Of a stretch of 64,000 nt of DNA, positions 4,421 through 32,310 are shown piece by piece. The stretch is from an uncultured Bacilli bacterium (GTDB taxonomy: Bacteria > Bacillota_I > Bacilli_A > RF39 > UBA660). The notes under the pieces were generated by a model, which saw only the letters and a program-made list of their open reading frames with translations, made no database searches and was not told the DNA's origin. Location of the stretch: positions 5,371 through 69,370 of the forward strand of contig CAKOQM010000001.1 in the NCBI GenBank assembly GCA_934101275.1, in the 5' to 3' direction. Numbering within the stretch: the stretch's first letter is position 1; each line of letters begins with the position of its first letter. The position numbers and the translations under genes were made by a program.

Positions 4421-6692
4421 AGGTCCTCAAAATGAAACAGCCAAAGACTTTGGCGGTTCTATGAAAAGATTATTTAAAGAATTAAAGACTTATCAAAAAG
4501 CTATTTTTCTTGCTTTGATTTTAGCAGCTCTTGGTTCTATTTTGTCTTTATTTGCTCCAAATAAATTATCTAATTTGACAGATGAAATTCAAAAGGGCTT
4601 AATTATTAATCAGAATAACATGACAGAGATCGCTACAGATATTCAAAATAATTTAATGACATCTTTACCAGAATATTTAAGTTTTAATTTAGATAATAAT
4701 ACTTTAATGAAAATTATGATTTCTTCTTCTATTAGTACAGAAGAAAAAGAAAATTTTCAAACTTATTTAAGTGATTTAAAAGATGGTAAAAAAGATTTTA
4801 CATATCTAGCTACTTTTTCTGATGATTTATTAAATTTATTGTTTGAAGATTCAAATTTTAAAGGAATAACAGTAACTAAAGAAGATAAAATTTCTTTTCT
4901 AAAGGGAATGAATAATAAAGAGTTTATTTTAAAAGATGATGTTAAAAACGTCTTATTATCTGATATCACAATCGATAATATTACAATTTCTTCAAAAGAC
5001 CAACTAAACTTTTTAAATATTTTATCTACCTTAAATGAATCAAATAGTTCCGAAATATATCAAAAATTAGAGGGAGCTCCTGAAAGTGTTCGCTTACTTA
5101 TTGAACCATATATGGATATGGATGTCATTAAAAAAATAGCCTTATTTTTATTAACGCTTTATTTAATAAGTGCCTTATTTAATTACATTGAATCTATTTT
5201 AATGACCAATGTTTCTAATGGTTTTGCTAAAGAATTAAGAGGTAAAATTTCTCATAAAATTAATTTATTACCTTTAAAATATTTTGACGCTCATCAATCA
5301 GGAGATATCTTATCTCGTGTGACAAACGATGTTGATAGTATTGCTCAATCATTAAATATGAGTTTGTCACCTTTAGTAAGTGCTTTAACTTTATTTATTG
5401 GTACCATTATCATGATGTTCGTAACAAATTGGATCCTTGCTCTTACAGCTATTTTATCGAGTTTACTAGGTTTTGTCTTTATGTTTGGGGTTTTAAGTAA
5501 ATCACAAAAATACTTTGTCGCACGTCAAGAAGAGTTAGGAGCTTTAAACGGACATATTGAAGAAGTTTATGGTGGCTTAAATGTTGTCAAGGCTTACAAT
5601 GCTCAAAAGATTTCTAATGAAAAATTCGATTCTTTAAATGAAAACGTTTATAATGCTAACCGTAAAAGTCAATTTTTATCAGGTCTTATGATGCCTATGA
5701 TGAACTTTATTGGTAACTTTGGCTATGTTGCTGTTTGTATTGTCGGAGCTTTACTTACTATCAATGGTAAAATTAGTTTTGGCGTTATTATTGCTTTCAT
5801 TACTTATGTTAGAATGTTTACCTCACCATTATCTCAAATTGCTCAAGCCATGACTTCATTACAATCAACTGCCGCAGCGAGTGAAAGAGTATTTGAATTT
5901 TTAGACGAAGAAGAAATGAAAGATGAATCTTCTTTAAAAGAACATTTAGCTCTAGAAGATGCCAAAGGAAATATTGAATTTAAAAATGTTGTCTTTAAAT
6001 ATGACGGCAATGAAAAACCAACCATTCATAACTTTAGTGCTAAAGTAAAAAGCGGTCAAAAAGTAGCAATTGTTGGTCCAACGGGTGCTGGTAAAACTAC
6101 AATGGTAAACTTATTAATGAAGTTTTATGACATCAGTGGAGGAGATATCATTATTGATGGTAAAAGTATTAAAGATTTAACCAGAGAAAATGTTCATGAT
6201 TTATTTACAATGGTTCTTCAAGATACTTGGTTATTTAATGGTACCATCAAAGAAAATATTATTTACAGTCGTGATAATATTAGCGATGACGATGTCAAAC
6301 GAGTTTGTAAAGTTGTTGGGCTAGATCATTTTATTAAAACTTTATCGGATGGTTATGATACCGAGTTAGGTGATAATGATAGTGTTTCGTCTGGTCAAAG
6401 ACAACTTTTAACGATTGCTAGAGCTATGCTTTCTTCATCTCCATTCTTAATTTTGGATGAAGCGACAAGTAATGTTGACACAAGAACAGAAGAATTAGTC
6501 CAAAAAGCTATGGATAAACTTTGTGAAGGAAAAACATCATTTATTATTGCTCACCGTTTATCAACCATTAAAAATGCTGATTTGATTTTAGTTATGAAAG
6601 ACGGTAATATTATTGAAACTGGTAATCATGATGAACTTATCAAAAAGAACGGTTTTTATGCCGATTTGTATAATTCACAGTTTGAAAAATAA
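4413..6692 (+). CDS. ABC transporter permease/ATP-binding protein (partner half-transporter) with a long extracytoplasmic insert
   Basis: 759 aa; 8-nt overlap with the upstream gene; RBS AAGGAGGAG; Walker A 'GPTGAGKTT', signature 'SGQRQLLTIARAM'; ~200 aa hydrophilic segment between TM1 and TM2. Confidence 0.9.
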   Translation: MHRGPQNETAKDFGGSMKRLFKELKTYQKAIFLALILAALGSILSLFAPNKLSNLTDEIQKGLIINQNNMTEIATDIQNNLMTSLPEYLSFNLDNNTLMKIMISSSISTEEKENFQTYLSDLKDGKKDFTYLATFSDDLLNLLFEDSNFKGITVTKEDKISFLKGMNNKEFILKDDVKNVLLSDITIDNITISSKDQLNFLNILSTLNESNSSEIYQKLEGAPESVRLLIEPYMDMDVIKKIALFLLTLYLISALFNYIESILMTNVSNGFAKELRGKISHKINLLPLKYFDAHQSGDILSRVTNDVDSIAQSLNMSLSPLVSALTLFIGTIIMMFVTNWILALTAILSSLLGFVFMFGVLSKSQKYFVARQEELGALNGHIEEVYGGLNVVKAYNAQKISNEKFDSLNENVYNANRKSQFLSGLMMPMMNFIGNFGYVAVCIVGALLTINGKISFGVIIAFITYVRMFTSPLSQIAQAMTSLQSTAAASERVFEFLDEEEMKDESSLKEHLALEDAKGNIEFKNVVFKYDGNEKPTIHNFSAKVKSGQKVAIVGPTGAGKTTMVNLLMKFYDISGGDIIIDGKSIKDLTRENVHDLFTMVLQDTWLFNGTIKENIIYSRDNISDDDVKRVCKVVGLDHFIKTLSDGYDTELGDNDSVSSGQRQLLTIARAMLSSSPFLILDEATSNVDTRTEELVQKAMDKLCEGKTSFIIAHRLSTIKNADLILVMKDGNIIETGNHDELIKKNGFYADLYNSQFEK

Positions 6693-25929: not shown

Positions 25930-26526
25930 ATGAAAGACATTAAAATTTATCCTCCTAAATTTCTGGAAAATGAGGATAAAAAGAAACAAAATATTTTAGT
26001 AGCACGAGAAATACTTAATAAGATTATGCATGCTGGTGATTATGAGTCTGCCATGAATTCTTATATTGAATTATTCTATATCTGTGGAAAAAATAAAAAA
26101 AAATTAGAAGCTTTCTTAAATTTACCAATAAACACTTTCTTTTATATGCCTACACAAGATTATTTGATTAAAGATATGCCTATTATACAAGAGATAAGTA
26201 AAAACTTTAATCCCAAAAATATTTTACAGGTAGATGCTATCGTTGGCTTAGATGAAATAGGCAGAAACCCTAGAGAGCAAGCTATATATGAGCCTCAAGT
26301 TTTTTATCTTCCTTGTGAAGGTATGAAAGATGAAGAAATTCTTTATACCTATAAAGAAAAAAGAGATCTTTATAATCAGATTAATCATGCAATTATGATA
26401 AAAGATACTGACTTTTTAACAGAAAATATAGAATTCATTGAATCTATGCCTTGTTATCATTGGTGTCTTTCACATTTTAATTTAAAAAACAAACATTTTG
26501 TCTTGCAAAAAGAAAGAAAAGAATAA
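25930..26526 (+). CDS. Hypothetical protein
   Basis: 198 aa; no recognisable motif; terminator hairpin at 26530-26572. Confidence 0.45.
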   Translation: MKDIKIYPPKFLENEDKKKQNILVAREILNKIMHAGDYESAMNSYIELFYICGKNKKKLEAFLNLPINTFFYMPTQDYLIKDMPIIQEISKNFNPKNILQVDAIVGLDEIGRNPREQAIYEPQVFYLPCEGMKDEEILYTYKEKRDLYNQINHAIMIKDTDFLTENIEFIESMPCYHWCLSHFNLKNKHFVLQKERKE

Positions 26527-26750
26527 GAAAAAGCTGAATAGAAAGAAGTAAATTTCTTAACAGCTTTTTTATTTTAAATATTTTTCCATCCGTGATAAAG
26601 TAAGATTATCTTTCAATAAATCATCAATCATCTGTTCTAAAATTTTTTTTACAAACATAAGGCGAACTTTATATTGAGAAAACATACCAATATCAAAAAT
26701 GCTTGTCGCTGTTTGTTAAATAAACTTTTTTTGCAAATCATTTATGCGTT

Positions 26751-26940
26751 TTATCGCATCTTCATTAGATAAAAATTCATTTTTTTGATTCTAGAATTGT
26801 AAAATAGGATGAGAGTGATCGAAAAAAGGATAAATCTTTAATAACTTTTTTGCTGTATTTATAAATAATGCCATCTTTTCCTGAACCAATTATTTTTAAT
26901 TTGGCCAGTTCTTGTTTGGTAATTTCTAATTGAGGTTTCA
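26751..26940 (-). pseudogene. Truncated N-terminal remnant of the kinase-like gene next to it
   Basis: Minus-strand translation '...LEITKQELAKLKIIGSGKDGIIYKYSKKVIKDL...' then an early stop; 32-bp exact repeat (26885-26916 = 27727-27758) with the intact paralog; no start codon. Confidence 0.55.
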
Positions 26941-26958
26941 AAAACAACAATTCCTTTC

Positions 26959-27780
26959 TTAATATAAATGTTTTTTCATTCTTTCTAAAGTGAGTTCATT
27001 ATTCAAAAAATCGGTAATTAAAGGTTCTGGCAACCGATCAGCTAAAGTATAGCAAAGACGCTCATCTTCGGGATTAGCAATATATTCAGTGATATATTCT
27101 TGGGAAAGTAATTCAATAACCAAAACACCTAGTGAAAACTCTGTTATTTTTTGATATTTTTTATTTTTTATAGCGGAATAAATCGCTGAATGACCATCAA
27201 TATCAATAATTTGAGGATCTAAAAAAGATGTTAATAACACATTGGTGTTACGACTTTCACTTGTTGGATGTTGACATAAATCAATGTGATAAATATTATG
27301 ATCTAAAAGTTCTTGAACTTCCTCAAGAATTTTTTTAACAATTTTAAGACGTGCCCGATATACAGGGATATACATTGCATTATAAATATTGGAAGATGGG
27401 TGGTGATAATATAAAGAACAGCCTTTTAAATGACCATCCACATAAACTAACTTTTCTGGCAGTTTCGTTAAATGAATATCTTTTTGCTTTTCAATAGCTT
27501 TTAAAATAGACTCTTTACGATAAAGTTTAACACCTTCTTCGTCTATAAATTGAATCGTATTTTGTTGTCTTCTTTTCTTTTGATAATCTTTAATTGGTGT
27601 AATGTTGACACCATCTTTGTCAAAAAGCGTATTTTTAATAGATAATTGCATGCAATCGGAATAGGAATGATATATTTTTAAAAGTTCCTTATTATTATAC
27701 TTATAAATTGTTCCTTCAGAGCCCTGACCAATTATTTTTAATTTGGCCAGTTCTTGTTGACTTATTTCAATTTTATTCAT
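26959..27780 (-). CDS. Protein-kinase-like fold protein (putative small-molecule or protein kinase)
   Basis: 274 aa from the ATG at 27780 behind RBS AAGGAGTG; Gly-loop 'IGQGSEGTIYKY', Lys in 'LLKIY', catalytic-loop-like 'YHIDLCQH...NVLL', 'IIDIDGHS'. Confidence 0.55.
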   Translation of the reverse strand: MNKIEISQQELAKLKIIGQGSEGTIYKYNNKELLKIYHSYSDCMQLSIKNTLFDKDGVNITPIKDYQKKRRQQNTIQFIDEEGVKLYRKESILKAIEKQKDIHLTKLPEKLVYVDGHLKGCSLYYHHPSSNIYNAMYIPVYRARLKIVKKILEEVQELLDHNIYHIDLCQHPTSESRNTNVLLTSFLDPQIIDIDGHSAIYSAIKNKKYQKITEFSLGVLVIELLSQEYITEYIANPEDERLCYTLADRLPEPLITDFLNNELTLERMKKHLY

Positions 27781-27951
27781 TTTTTTCTCACTCCTTAGAT
27801 AGATATTATAAAAAAATAAAGCCAAAATCTCAAAAAATATAGATATCTATTTACATTTTGTTTACATATTTAAAATGTACAAGAAAGGACGGTTTTAACT
27901 AGTATCTTTCTTCTTTTTTTGGTAAAATAGTTAGGAATGAAGGTGATTTAG

Positions 27952-28347
27952 ATGCTTAATAGAAGTGAAGCACGTAAAATTTGTATGATTTGTTTATATC
28001 AGATTGATATTTTAAGACAAAACAAACTTCCTATTGATATAAAGGAAATTATAAAAGAAAATTTAGAAGTAGAGAATAATTTTGTAGAAAATGTTGTCAC
28101 AGGTGTCACGGATCATTTAGAAGAATTAGATGATTTATGTAACACTTATTTAACCAATTGGAAAATTAATCGTTTAGATAAAACTGGAGCAAATATTTTG
28201 AGAATGGCTTTTTATGAATTAAAATATATGGATACACCTTCTATCGTTGTGATAAATGAAGCGGTAGAACTTGCTAAAACCTATACGGATAAAGAACTTG
28301 CCAACATGATAAATGCATCCTTAGACAAGTACATAAAGGAATTATAA
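27952..28347 (+). CDS. nusB: Transcription antitermination factor NusB
   Basis: 131 aa; 'RSEARKICMICLYQIDI' NusB N-terminal signature. Confidence 0.85.
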   Translation: MLNRSEARKICMICLYQIDILRQNKLPIDIKEIIKENLEVENNFVENVVTGVTDHLEELDDLCNTYLTNWKINRLDKTGANILRMAFYELKYMDTPSIVVINEAVELAKTYTDKELANMINASLDKYIKEL

Positions 28348-29357
28348 TGAAAGTCCAAAATGGTATTGTCACACTAAAAAGTATTGTTCCAGATTGGCGT
28401 AAAGCTATAAAAAATAATACCGTTATTCCTAACGATTTATGCGGCGGGTTTTATGATGGGTATTGGTTAAATGATATTGAGGGTGAAAATTATTTTTTCA
28501 AAATATCTAAAAAAAAAGGTTTTTCCAAAGAACTTTTTAATCAAATTTTAGGTGAAGAACTTGCCAGAATGGTTGGTATTGAAACCGTTCATTCTAAAGT
28601 AGTTGATGTTGGTAATCATTTTTATGGTTTATTATCTTTTAATTATATAAAATACAATGATGAAGTTTTCTCTGGTAAAAGCATAGTTTTACAATATTTA
28701 CATCATCTTTATAAGGATAATCTTTTAGAACTTTGGTTAGATAGTCGTTTAACAAAGGAAGAAAAAGCTGCTTTTGAAAACGAAAATTTAGATGAAATGA
28801 TGCAGGTATTAAATTCTCATAATCTTAATTGCAATTCTTTAAATTTTATTTGGGATGCCCTTTATTATCATTTTAAAGATTTTTCTCAAGGAAATTTAAT
28901 TACAGAAAAAATCATTAAGAATTTGACTCAACGTTACATTTTTTCCTTTTTTATCATGAACAAAGATTTTCATTTAAAAAATTGGGAAGTACTCGATATC
29001 CATCAAAATTACCGTTTATCTCCTTTATATGACATTGATCTTAGTTTTGATAAATCTTTTTCTGATTTAAACAAAAATAATTCTTTGCAATCTTATGAAA
29101 CGGATATTGCAAGTATTTATGAAGATTTCGAAAGATATTTTTATTCTTCAGCTGAAAGTTTTAGAGTAGAAGTCTATCATCAAAAAGAAGTGCTAAAACC
29201 TGAAAATGTCCAAGCTGCTTTAGATAACATTTTAAGTATTTATCAAGATCCTAAATTAAATTCATATGCCGATGCAATTATGACAAATTATGTTTCACAT
29301 TACGAGCAAATAAACGCTATAACAAAGGAACGTACATTATGGCAGACAAATACTTAA
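28347..29357 (+). CDS. HipA-like Ser/Thr kinase domain protein
   Basis: 336 aa; 'NKDFHLKNWEVL' (HipA D-x-H-x-KN catalytic motif) and 'LSPLYDIDLS' (HipA L-x-P-x-YD motif); start overlaps the nusB stop (ATAATGA) and its end overlaps the xseA start. Confidence 0.6.
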   Translation: MKVQNGIVTLKSIVPDWRKAIKNNTVIPNDLCGGFYDGYWLNDIEGENYFFKISKKKGFSKELFNQILGEELARMVGIETVHSKVVDVGNHFYGLLSFNYIKYNDEVFSGKSIVLQYLHHLYKDNLLELWLDSRLTKEEKAAFENENLDEMMQVLNSHNLNCNSLNFIWDALYYHFKDFSQGNLITEKIIKNLTQRYIFSFFIMNKDFHLKNWEVLDIHQNYRLSPLYDIDLSFDKSFSDLNKNNSLQSYETDIASIYEDFERYFYSSAESFRVEVYHQKEVLKPENVQAALDNILSIYQDPKLNSYADAIMTNYVSHYEQINAITKERTLWQTNT

Positions 29358-30685
29358 CTATCGCGGCTATCAATAGCTATATAAAAAATTTGTTTGATTC
29401 CAATACTTTTTTAAACAAAGTATATTTAAAAGGTGAAATTAGTAATTTTAAAAATCATTCTTCAGGACATCTTTATTTAACCTTAAAAGATGAAAATTCG
29501 AGAATAAGTGCTATTATGTTTAAAAGTGCCGCGAGTCATTTAACGTTTAAACCGGAAGATGGGATGAATGTTTTAGTTGAAGGAAGAATTGCTGTATATC
29601 CTGCGGGGGGTAATTATCAAATTTATATTGAAAAAATGCAACCTGATGGCCTTGGCAATTTATATGTCGAATTTGAAAGACTAAAAAAGAAGTTAGCTAG
29701 CGAAGGCCTTTTTGATCCAAAATATAAAAAAGAAATTCCTAAGTTTCCAACTAGAATTGGTATTATCACAGCCCCAACAGGAGCAGCGATTAAAGATATA
29801 TTAAGTACTTTAAAACGAAGATTTCCTTATGCGAAAACGCTTCTTTTTCCGTCTTTAGTACAAGGGACTTCTGCAGCTAATGATATTGCTCAAAATATTT
29901 TTAAAGCCAACCATTATCGTTTAGATGTTTTAATCGTTGGCCGTGGTGGCGGTTCCATTGAAGACTTATGGGCTTTTAATGAAGAAGTTGTAGCAAGAGC
30001 GATTTTTGCCTCTTCTATACCTATTATTAGTGCTGTGGGTCACGAGGTTGACTTTACTATTTCGGATTACGTCGCGGATAGACGTGCTCCCACACCAACA
30101 GGTGCCGCCGAGATGGCTGTGCCAACAAAAGAAGAAGTTAAAACAATTTTTTGTCAAAAAGAAGAACAAATAAAGCGCTTATTTTCTTCACGCCTAGAAC
30201 AAGCAAGCCATCGTTTAAATATTTTAAAAAATCATTATGTATTAAAGAATCCAAAAGTTTTATATGAAATGAAAATGCAACATTTAGATAACTTAACGGA
30301 TACTTTGCAAAAAAATTATATATATTATTTAAGTCTCAAACAAGCCTCACTTAATAAATATAAAACTCATTATATTTTAAATAATCCAACTATTTTATAT
30401 CAGGCTTCAAAAGAAAAATATATAGCTTTAAATGAAAAATTGCAAAAAGAAATAAAAAGTTATTTACAAGATAAAAAACAAAAACTTTATTATACAATAC
30501 AAAATTTAAAACTGTTAAATCCGTTAAATATTTTAGAACAAGGTTATGCGATTGTCAAAAAAGAAGACAAAATAATTACCGATATCAAAAATATTAACAA
30601 AGAAGATACATTGAGTGTTACCTTAAATAAAGGAACGTTAAAAGTAAAAGTAAAGGAGATTAATTATGAAAGAAATGACATTTGA
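29339..30685 (+). CDS. xseA: Exodeoxyribonuclease VII large subunit
   Basis: 448 aa; N-terminal OB-fold, 'RGGGSIEDLWAFNEE' core, coiled-coil C-terminus. Confidence 0.9.
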   Translation: MADKYLTIAAINSYIKNLFDSNTFLNKVYLKGEISNFKNHSSGHLYLTLKDENSRISAIMFKSAASHLTFKPEDGMNVLVEGRIAVYPAGGNYQIYIEKMQPDGLGNLYVEFERLKKKLASEGLFDPKYKKEIPKFPTRIGIITAPTGAAIKDILSTLKRRFPYAKTLLFPSLVQGTSAANDIAQNIFKANHYRLDVLIVGRGGGSIEDLWAFNEEVVARAIFASSIPIISAVGHEVDFTISDYVADRRAPTPTGAAEMAVPTKEEVKTIFCQKEEQIKRLFSSRLEQASHRLNILKNHYVLKNPKVLYEMKMQHLDNLTDTLQKNYIYYLSLKQASLNKYKTHYILNNPTILYQASKEKYIALNEKLQKEIKSYLQDKKQKLYYTIQNLKLLNPLNILEQGYAIVKKEDKIITDIKNINKEDTLSVTLNKGTLKVKVKEINYERNDI

Positions 30686-30920
30686 AAACGCTTTAAATAA
30701 TCTAGAAACGATTATTAAAGATCTAGAAAATGGTAATATACCATTAGAAGATGCTATCAGTAAATATACCGACGCGATGAATTTAGTTAAAGTGTGTCAA
30801 GAAAAATTAGATAATGCTACAGAACAAGTGAATAAAATTATTGGCGAAAATGGGGAAGTACAAGACTTTTTAATGAAAGAAGAGGATGCAAATGACAAAA
30901 CTAGTAACGAAGATAACTGA
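30666..30920 (+). CDS. xseB: Exodeoxyribonuclease VII small subunit
   Basis: 84 aa; 'FENALNNLETIIKDLENGNIPLEDAI'; overlaps xseA. Confidence 0.85.
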   Translation: MKEMTFENALNNLETIIKDLENGNIPLEDAISKYTDAMNLVKVCQEKLDNATEQVNKIIGENGEVQDFLMKEEDANDKTSNEDN

Positions 30921-32310
30921 TCGGGATACTGATTTTGCAACTTGGTATAACGATGTTTTAAGAGAAGCCGATTTGGTAAATTATTCAAGTGTTAAAGGAA
31001 GTATGATTATTAGACCTTATGGTTATGCCATTTGGGAAAATATGCAAAGTATACTAGATAAAGAATTCAAAAAACTAGGCCATCAAAACGTTCAAATGCC
31101 CATGTTTATTCCTGAATCTTTATTAAATGTAGAAAAAGAACATGTTGAAGGGTTTGCCCCAGAAGTAGCGTGGGTTACCTATGGAGGAGAAAATAAGTTA
31201 GAAGAAAGAATGTGTGTGAGACCAACAAGTGAAGTTTTATTTTGTGATCATTTTAAAAACATTGTCAAATCTTATCGTGACTTACCCCTTTTATATAATC
31301 AGTGGTGCACTATTGTTCGTTGGGAGAAGACAACACGACCTTTCCTAAGAAGCCGAGAAATCCTTTGGCAAGAGGGACATACTCTTCATAGAACAAAAGA
31401 AGAAGCCCATGAAGAAACACTTAGAATGTTTAAAGTTTATGAAGATTTTCAAAGAAATGTTTTAGCCCTTCCTGTTATCACGGGACGAAAAACAGAAAAA
31501 GAAAAATTTGCTGGTGCTGAAGAAACCTATACTATCGAAGCCATGATGTATGATGGAGTAGCTCTTCAAAATGGTACAAGTCATTATTTTGGTCAACATT
31601 TTGCTAAAGCTTTTGGTATTCAATTTTTAGATACGGATAATACATTAAAAACCCCCTATCAAACAAGCTGGGGTGTTACAACACGTATGATTGGAGCTTT
31701 AATTATGACTCATGGGGATAATCATGGTTTGGTGCTTCCACCTAATATTGCTCCTACTAAAGTTGTCTTTATTCCTATTGGTAAAGAAAAAGACGTTTTG
31801 GATACTGTTCACTCATTAAAAGAGGCATTAGATCCTATGATTACCTCGTCTATAGATACTTCTGAAAAATCACCTGGTTTTAAATTTGCAGATGCCGAGG
31901 TAAAAGGTATCCCTATAAGAGTAGAAGTAGGAAAAAGAGACTTAGAAAAAAATGAAGTTACTTTAGTAAGACGAGATACGTTGAAAAAAGAAAGTGTACC
32001 TCTTACAGAAGTTCCTCAGCGTATTGAAAGTCTTTTAAAAGAGATTCAAAAAGATATGTATGATCGGGCTTTAAAAAGACGTGATAGCATGATTTATGAA
32101 GTCAAAACAAAAGAAGAATTCCAAGACATTGCTAAAAACAAACCGGGCTTTATTTTAATGCTATGGTGTGGTAAAACAGCTTGCGAAGATACTATTAAAG
32201 AAGAAACAGGACTTAAAAGCCGGTGCATCAAAGAAGAAATAAATGACGGTGTCTGTGCTTATTGCGGCAGTCCTGCTAAATATAAAATTTACTTTGGTAA
32301 ACAATATTAA
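30886..32310 (+). CDS. proS: Proline--tRNA ligase, archaeal/eukaryotic-like (no editing insertion; C-terminal Zn-binding domain ending in Tyr)
   Basis: 474 aa; class II aaRS motifs; C-terminal 'CAYCGSPAKYKIYFGKQY'. Confidence 0.85.
   Translation: MQMTKLVTKITDRDTDFATWYNDVLREADLVNYSSVKGSMIIRPYGYAIWENMQSILDKEFKKLGHQNVQMPMFIPESLLNVEKEHVEGFAPEVAWVTYGGENKLEERMCVRPTSEVLFCDHFKNIVKSYRDLPLLYNQWCTIVRWEKTTRPFLRSREILWQEGHTLHRTKEEAHEETLRMFKVYEDFQRNVLALPVITGRKTEKEKFAGAEETYTIEAMMYDGVALQNGTSHYFGQHFAKAFGIQFLDTDNTLKTPYQTSWGVTTRMIGALIMTHGDNHGLVLPPNIAPTKVVFIPIGKEKDVLDTVHSLKEALDPMITSSIDTSEKSPGFKFADAEVKGIPIRVEVGKRDLEKNEVTLVRRDTLKKESVPLTEVPQRIESLLKEIQKDMYDRALKRRDSMIYEVKTKEEFQDIAKNKPGFILMLWCGKTACEDTIKEETGLKSRCIKEEINDGVCAYCGSPAKYKIYFGKQY

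Follow-up and report, generated by a model that had tools for sequence, protein, structure and literature searches.

Gene X is a 336-codon open reading frame (28347..29357, + strand, ATG start) in a 64,000-nucleotide (nt) stretch of contig CAKOQM010000001.1 (assembly GCA_934101275.1) from an uncultured Bacilli bacterium of the RF39 lineage, and this whole stretch is called the window below. As judged from its sequence and a structure model, X is a divergent single-domain kinase with the HipA/CtkA fold, which contains the core kinase only. It lies between nusB and xseA in a housekeeping gene cluster, has no antitoxin gene beside it, and belongs to a family whose predicted catalytic residues are invariant. 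With moderate confidence, we favour the reading that X is a non-toxin cellular kinase co-expressed with its operon.

The kinase identity of X is supported by motifs, profiles and fold. The Pfam HipA_C model (PF07804) matches X with 38.9 bits (gathering cut-off 30.5; expectation value E 9.6e-10) over residues 187–234 only, and more distant family members score below the cut-off or show no match. The core of this match is the catalytic motif D207-F-H-L-K-N212 (28965..28982, or 28965–28985 with the following W, + strand), in which D207 aligns to HipA D309. The predicted Mg2+-binding aspartate D229 (codon 29031..29033, + strand) is found in the motif L-S-P-L-Y-D229-I-D-L-S, and aligns to HipA D332 and to the PAYD motif of Legionella HipT (HipT(Lp)). 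The predicted ATP-binding lysine K52 (codon 28500..28502, + strand) is located in the hairpin of the N-lobe, on its second strand (model strand E47–58); it presumably corresponds to HipA K181, to which it was not aligned. When the PDB was searched with the X sequence, the best matches were HipA (E 0.027, phmmer) and HipT(Lp) (E 0.05), and the match to HipT(Lp) improved to E 3.6e-4 when the family profile was used. The AlphaFold2 model of X, built from a 23-sequence alignment, reached a predicted local distance difference test score (pLDDT) of 92.8 and a predicted template modelling (TM) score of 0.91. In a Foldseek search of the PDB with this model, the top 30 matches were all CtkA, HipT or HipA (E 1.5e-8 to 9e-5, TM score about 0.45–0.6). 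They were followed by PI3K, mTOR and SMG1, and PI4K-type lipid kinases and the maltokinase fold also matched. A sequence-only reading of this DNA had described X as HipA-like on account of the motifs DFHLKNW and LSPLYDIDLS, and had proposed HipA_C as a check. Both motifs are present and align to the two HipA aspartates, the concern that they might not score against the model fell away with a score above the cut-off, and the assignment holds by fold as well.

Outside this catalytic core, X differs from the canonical Hip kinases in several elements. It has no N-subdomain-1, helix-turn-helix (HTH), HipS or HIRAN domain. The candidate Gly-rich loop, N-D-L-C32-G-G-F-Y-D-G-Y-W, contains no Ser/Thr and no GxQxK-type motif. 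The segment K-N-N-S (243–246) after the Mg-binding Asp, a possible counterpart of the HipA activation loop, is conserved in the nusB clade and absent from distant members. The PHROGs and a viral structure library gave weak or generic PI3K-like matches only. Assignment of X to YjjJ was rejected (NCBIfam 15.6 bits versus a cut-off of 401). Taken together, X is predicted to be a catalytically competent phosphotransferase and, we infer, an active kinase.

X is tightly packed between its neighbours. The upstream gene nusB (27952..28347, + strand, 131 aa; Pfam NusB 105.9 bits, TIGR01951 112.6 bits versus a cut-off of 88.35) ends with TAA at 28345–28347 and the ATG of X occupies 28347–28349, with base 28347 common to both (ATAATGA). 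Near its 3' end, nusB contains a Shine-Dalgarno sequence AAGGAA (28336..28341, + strand) that is separated by 5 nt from the X start codon, and AAGGA or AGGAG elements precede the X start in relatives too. Downstream, X overlaps by 19 nt with xseA, encoding the exonuclease VII (ExoVII) large subunit (29339..30685, + strand; TIGR00237 499.6 bits, Pfam Exonuc_VII_L 345.7 bits). xseA overlaps by 20 nt with xseB for the small subunit (30666..30920, + strand; TIGR01280 70.2 bits, Pfam Exonuc_VII_S), which overlaps by 35 nt with proS for prolyl-tRNA synthetase (ProRS; 30886..32310, + strand; Pfam tRNA-synt_2b, HGTP_anticodon and ProRS-C_1). proS is the last co-directional gene of the cluster and is followed by a convergent SpoIVB-type peptidase gene. 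The 126-nt intergenic region upstream of nusB and of a divergent gene (27826..27951, + strand) is the presumed promoter region of nusB-X-xseA-xseB-proS.

The operon was defined without the promoter and terminator scans. No terminator-like site was found on the + strand from nusB to the end of proS, in a scan that performed no better than on shuffled sequence, and no specific promoter is claimed from a scan that found 40 candidates versus 37.9 expected in shuffled sequence. No Rfam family (tRNA, rRNA, riboswitch or T-box, including upstream of proS) was matched at the gathering threshold in the whole 64 kb, and the window holds no leader, riboswitch or RNA-antitoxin candidate of a known Rfam family. 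No HTH gene or other small gene adjoins X, and the only nearby intergenic gaps are 27826–27951 and 26527–26958 (432 nt).

The 19-nt overlap between X and xseA is private to the window sequence. P0001, a 99%-identical protein, and the relatives at 63% identity are shorter by 5 aa at this end. In sequenced relatives (L011, for example), X and xseA overlap by 4 nt, ATGA. In the window (29337–29357), the stop codon TGA of the relatives is TGG, which adds five residues (WQTNT) and extends the overlap from 4 to 19 nt. In the xseA frame, the changed base opens codon 2.

The family to which X belongs was collected by searching 1.84 billion cluster representatives exhaustively with HMMER (E <= 1e-3; clusters at 50% identity), which yielded 89 clusters. 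Nearly all members are 290–335 aa and match end to end. The exhaustive search was required, as a word-indexed protein search recovered only 3 clusters when queried with X alone, and 4 when queried with a 23-sequence profile. The genome and metagenome scans used a narrower alignment and are biased to the nusB clade and a long-N-terminus clade. The family hidden Markov model scores its members with 200–300 bits, and Pfam HipA_C with at most 39 bits. By these profile scores, the X family is distinct and previously unnamed, and Pfam HipA_C captures it marginally. None of the 84 full-length members in an 85-sequence alignment departs from K52, D207, N212 or D229, and the H of the motif D-x-H-x-K-N is present in 64 of the 85 members. 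All the named carriers are gut or rumen metagenome-assembled genomes of uncultured organisms, assigned to Bacilli, "Tenericutes", Erysipelotrichaceae or Ca. Ventrenecus, and the guanine-plus-cytosine (GC) content of all X loci is 25–32%. The sole named database entry for the family reads "hypothetical protein".

The position of X between nusB and xseA is conserved. The order nusB-X-xseA was found in the window and in loci L001–L021, L023, L024, L027/28 and L033–L040, with L022 as the exception. The longer order (mutS)-nusB-X-xseA-xseB(-proS) was found in both 63%-identity clusters, in 11 of the 12 species genomes retrieved and in all 8 metagenome contigs where flanks exist, as well as for P0040, P0023 and P0035, whose X is 23–27% identical to that of the window. 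Across loci the identity of X to the window protein ranges from 23 to 99%, and that of the neighbours is 74–95% for MutS, 69–88% for ProRS, 58–84% for NusB and 57–78% for XseA. In all loci, X either overlaps its neighbours or is separated from them by no more than about 30 nt. There is one X copy per locus, apart from a tandem pair in L041. The GC content of X is 27.0%, close to the 27.5% of nusB, and no X relative was found among the viral contigs searched. In a rough neighbour-joining tree, only indicative at such divergence, the nusB-type context turns up in two places far apart, which suggests that this context is ancestral for the family.

No adjacent antitoxin gene was found in more than 20 related loci. 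In L019, L021 and L024, the cluster is mutS-nusB-X-xseA(-xseB-proS) and consists of known-function genes only, so no cryptic antitoxin gene can hide there. The sequence-only reading had placed the start of X on the nusB stop, counted a 19-nt overlap with xseA, named nusB, xseA and xseB as the neighbours and noted that a HipB partner was absent. The start is where it had been put, the overlap is real in the window and specific to this strain, the neighbours are borne out by their NCBIfam and Pfam scores, and a HipB partner is absent from the window locus and from the relatives. The comparison with relatives that it had called for gave the same order in every clade relative examined, down to 23% identity of X. 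It had also considered that the gene might be a conserved non-kinase paralogue throughout the lineage; the lineage-wide conservation was found, but the non-kinase part does not hold, since the catalytic residues are all intact.

The selection acting on X was estimated from unsaturated pairs (synonymous divergence dS 0.1–0.7). The ratio of nonsynonymous to synonymous divergence (dN/dS) was 0.08–0.12 for X, 0.04–0.08 for NusB, about 0.05 for XseA, 0.02–0.04 for ProRS, about 0.015 for MutS and about 0.013 for XseB. The value of about 0.1 indicates purifying selection on X. A mosaic was observed between L016 (4547–8896) and L017: nusB and the 5' two-thirds of X are 75–89% identical (dS about 0.7–1.3), and the 3' end of X, xseA, xseB and proS are 91–100% identical (dS about 0.1–0.3), which points to a recombination breakpoint inside X.

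Members of the X family are also found next to genes for other DNA enzymes. The order ruvA-X-ruvB, with gaps of at most 9 nt, occurs in two divergent genomes, at L026 946–3526 (P0012) and at L030 1485–4060 (L030/31, P0018); the X proteins of L026 and L030 are 42% identical and their RuvB proteins 81%. At L041 829–4649 (P0047), a nucleotidyl-transferase gene is followed by the tandem X pair and ligA. The two tandem copies (297 and 319 aa) are 44% identical and lie 4 nt apart, and ligA, which encodes NAD-dependent DNA ligase, overlaps the second copy by 20 nt. In L022, X ends 54 nt upstream of topB for topoisomerase III, and a TATAAT-like sequence in the gap makes this linkage weaker. Solitary X genes are represented by P0010, P0015, P0054 and P0057, and P0010 is near UDG, NUDIX and NT5C genes. 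In four of the eight sampled context classes, the next co-directional gene encodes a DNA repair, recombination or topology enzyme. The chance of this association is roughly 4e-4 in a post hoc test that assumes such genes make up about 5% of the genome. The ruvAB, ligA and topB contexts and the distinct-family status were missed in the sequence-only reading.

X was compared with the known Hip-type kinases. The best structural match is CtkA of Helicobacter pylori (JHP0940, PDB 3akj/3akk/3akl; Foldseek E 1.5e-8, TM score 0.49–0.57), which like X consists of one kinase domain (about 300 aa) with a HipA-type core. However, the identity between the two is only 11–13%, and the PDB sequence search with X misses CtkA. 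We know of no cognate antitoxin gene for CtkA. The CtkA gene is a strain-variable plasticity-zone gene and its product is secreted into host cells, whereas X is fixed and vertically inherited in a core operon of gut Bacilli. The best sequence match among solved structures is HipT of HipBST (E. coli O127; Legionella Lpg2370, PDB 7vkb/8ezr), which resembles X in having a core kinase without N-subdomain-1, a similar length, and the motifs D-x-H-L-K-N and P-x-Y-D. HipT is encoded after hipB and hipS, with HipS as the antitoxin, carries autophosphorylated serines in its Gly-rich loop and targets TrpS (PMC8262856). In contrast, X has neither hipB nor hipS partners and no conserved Gly-rich loop. HipA of E. 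coli K-12 hipBA shares with X the catalytic and Mg-binding Asp, the C-lobe fold and Pfam PF07804, but it is a 440-aa protein with an N-terminal subdomain, is paired with the HTH antitoxin HipB and has a patchy distribution.

Kinases without a linked antitoxin gene are already known in this superfamily. HipH/YjjJ of E. coli is, like X, a Hip-family kinase with no adjacent antitoxin gene (PMC8262856, PMC9948734), and its substrates are RpmE and CsrA rather than aminoacyl-tRNA synthetases (PMC9948734), so Hip kinases can have other targets. Unlike X, HipH is encoded by a monocistronic gene, and its N-terminus is extended by an HTH region of about 100 aa (PMC8262856). The clade-XI enzymes HipG, HipM, HipI and HipJ (Gerdes et al. 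2021) are core-kinase-only proteins of 279–321 aa, some of them in Firmicutes, and are similar to X in this respect. Compared by description only, they differ from X in having a cognate adjacent antitoxin (HipR, HipP, HipN or HipS) and the four Hip motifs. HipN, the partner of HipI, carries a DNA-end-binding HIRAN domain (PMC8262856). HipG kinases likewise have no Ser/Thr in the Gly-rich loop (PMC8262856), so the absence of this loop does not exclude membership of the superfamily. PDC-M03A, a PADLOC candidate defence protein of about 280–300 aa, matches X in part, and the setting of X is a housekeeping operon. Judged by sequence and model, X has the Pfam score, the catalytic and Mg-binding motifs and the fold of the Hip superfamily, and is without its antitoxin gene and conserved Gly-rich loop. 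None of the ten gene arrangements defined by Gerdes et al. 2021 accommodates X, and the literature searches brought up no account of a Hip-type kinase within a nusB-xseA, ruvAB or ligA operon.

In the reading that we favour, X would be co-transcribed with nusB, xseA, xseB and proS. It would be translationally coupled at both ends, through the ATG that overlaps the nusB stop and the X stop inside xseA, and the protein would be made whenever NusB and ExoVII are made. Because X would be made together with housekeeping proteins, a potent unneutralised growth-arresting toxin appears to be ruled out. X may thus be a domesticated Ser/Thr kinase whose substrates are one or a few proteins of the cell, a protein substrate being presumed. 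A regulatory rather than a toxin role, as the sequence-only reading had suggested, would fit the vertical inheritance, the purifying selection and the native GC content of X. Since relatives of X are coupled upstream of ruvB and ligA, and less tightly upstream of topB, the likeliest targets would be DNA repair or recombination enzymes or a common partner of them. There is a precedent for a link between Hip proteins and DNA ends in the HIRAN-bearing HipL and HipN (Gerdes et al. 2021, PMC8262856). The more specific proposal, that the X family is a DNA repair and recombination kinase with a HipA/PI3K-like fold, coupled into ExoVII, RuvAB, LigA and topoisomerase III operons and phosphorylating those enzymes or a common partner so as to tune DNA processing, is tentative and on balance somewhat unlikely. 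ProRS was considered as a target by analogy with the pairs HipA–GltX and HipT–TrpS, and was judged unlikely; proS is missing from the L023 cluster. The region hit by HipA and HipT is KMSKS, which the class II enzyme ProRS lacks.

Several observations weigh against a conserved cellular role of this kind. X evolves 2–7 times faster than its operon neighbours, which is unusual for a core regulator. X is dispensable at least in the lineage of L020 (UMGS1217, URPE01000005.1), in which codon 13 of X is TAA (5031–5033) and the close relative L040 has Gln. Truncated 267-aa X calls of the same cluster were found on five contigs, and the L020 gene is probably a genuine allele, either inactivated or shortened at the N-terminus. 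The Gly-rich loop is not conserved, with C32/G33 in gapped columns in 42–45 of the 85 members. The position of X could reflect a tolerated insertion site rather than a function: the nusB-xseA adjacency is an old Firmicute arrangement, and in B. subtilis folD lies between the two genes. Four of the eight context classes are solitary, with no DNA-enzyme neighbour, and the DNA-repair association is post hoc, each class other than xseA comprising 1–2 loci. The proposed activity, substrate and non-toxicity of X are genomic predictions.

The view that X is still a growth-arresting Hip toxin has to be considered, since its closest characterised relatives, HipA and HipT, are toxins. Such a toxin might be kept in check in a non-canonical manner, by its own autophosphorylation in cis, by an antitoxin that is unlinked or made of RNA, or by one of the flanking housekeeping proteins, and its place within an essential operon would in that case be a form of selfish persistence. 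HipH/YjjJ has no linked antitoxin gene and is still toxic when overproduced (PMC9948734), the antitoxins of HipM, HipI and HipJ sit downstream of the kinase (PMC8262856), and the rapid evolution of X resembles that of conflict genes. However, X is inherited vertically, remains syntenic to below 25% identity and is under purifying selection, and its distribution is neither patchy nor tied to mobile elements. No locus has an adjacent candidate antitoxin, and the family has not conserved the serine of the Gly-rich loop through which Hip kinases regulate themselves. We consider a retained toxin to be unlikely. A related view, that X is an anti-phage abortive-infection kinase lodged in a housekeeping operon, draws on the same rapid evolution, on the match to PADLOC PDC-M03A (E 2.3e-11, 41.8 bits) and on the proposal that Hip kinases are abortive-infection effectors (PMC8262856). 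But the PDC-M03A match covers residues 146–275 only, which is the shared catalytic core. The neighbours are housekeeping genes rather than a defence island, no PDC-M03 partner gene is nearby (the make-up of PDC-M03 was not consulted), and no phage relatives were found among the viral contigs or in the viral structure library. Fixed synteny over deep divergence is also the opposite of defence-gene turnover, and a defence role is highly improbable.

The substrate of X might not be a protein. A protein-kinase-like fold is used on other substrates by aminoglycoside, choline and lipid kinases, and X could in this way be a nucleic-acid-end or small-molecule kinase, such as a 5'-OH polynucleotide kinase that supplies ligase or ExoVII, or a kinase of nucleotides or metabolites. 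The fold matches to PI3K/PI4K-type lipid kinases and maltokinase are consistent with this, as are the DNA-end-processing neighbours ExoVII and LigA and the UDG, NUDIX and NT5C genes near solitary copies, and the peptide-substrate features of HipA are not recognisable in the X sequence. Yet all the characterised HipA_C proteins are protein kinases, the catalytic motif D-x-H-x-K-N is of the Hip type, and RuvAB has no obvious need for end phosphorylation. Known polynucleotide kinases, moreover, are P-loop enzymes, which counts against this view, and we regard it as doubtful. The last possibility is that X is a decaying remnant or dead pseudokinase, retained only because its removal would break the translational coupling. 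X is faster-evolving than all its neighbours, has a premature stop in one lineage (L020), and has a degenerate Gly-rich loop. This view is hardly credible against a dN/dS of about 0.1, four catalytic residues invariant in 84 of 84 members, full length maintained at 310–335 aa across 89 clusters, and a confident, compact model fold.

Other open reading frames near the operon were also inspected. The gene divergent from nusB (26959–27825, - strand) is a 288-aa open reading frame whose likely true start is the ATG at 27780, giving probably 273 aa as in relatives. It contains the motifs IIGQGSEGTIYKY, LLKIY, HNIYHIDLCQH...NTNVLL and IIDIDG, and reads like a second atypical protein-kinase-like protein. 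It had no match in Pfam, NCBIfam, PADLOC, PHROG or PDB. Identity to its counterparts in the closest relatives is about 60%, and its single-sequence AlphaFold2 model (pLDDT 35.8) was unusable. It was rejected as an obligate partner of X, being absent from distant loci that retain X. The region 26527–26958 (- strand) holds decayed remnants of a tandem paralogue of this gene: a 57-aa open reading frame (26777–26950) is 54% identical to its residues 18–56, and a fragment in another frame matches residues 142–178. Between mutS and nusB there is also orf198 (25930–26526, + strand, 198 aa), which has no family match and is found with 24–48% identity in many relatives. It was rejected as a partner of X, being missing in L019, L021 and L024.

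Hip kinases have been studied almost entirely as the toxins of toxin-antitoxin systems, in persistence and phage defence, and the published scheme is defined by the adjacent antitoxin. The X family has the Hip fold and intact catalytic residues, has no antitoxin, and has long been fixed in core operons of reduced-genome gut Bacilli. It appears to be a new Hip-homologous family that is operon-embedded and has a non-toxin-antitoxin organisation. The carriers are all uncultured and the functional claim is purely genomic. If it is true, X would be a clear example of a toxin-type kinase recruited to housekeeping by domestication, and Hip substrates would be expected beyond the aminoacyl-tRNA synthetases. 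If X is a DNA-repair kinase, it would be, by descent from a toxin lineage, a prokaryotic functional analogue of the PIKK-type DNA-damage kinases. The location of X beside the genes for ExoVII, RuvAB, LigA and topoisomerase III leads to a testable hypothesis, namely that Ser/Thr phosphorylation may control bacterial DNA repair.

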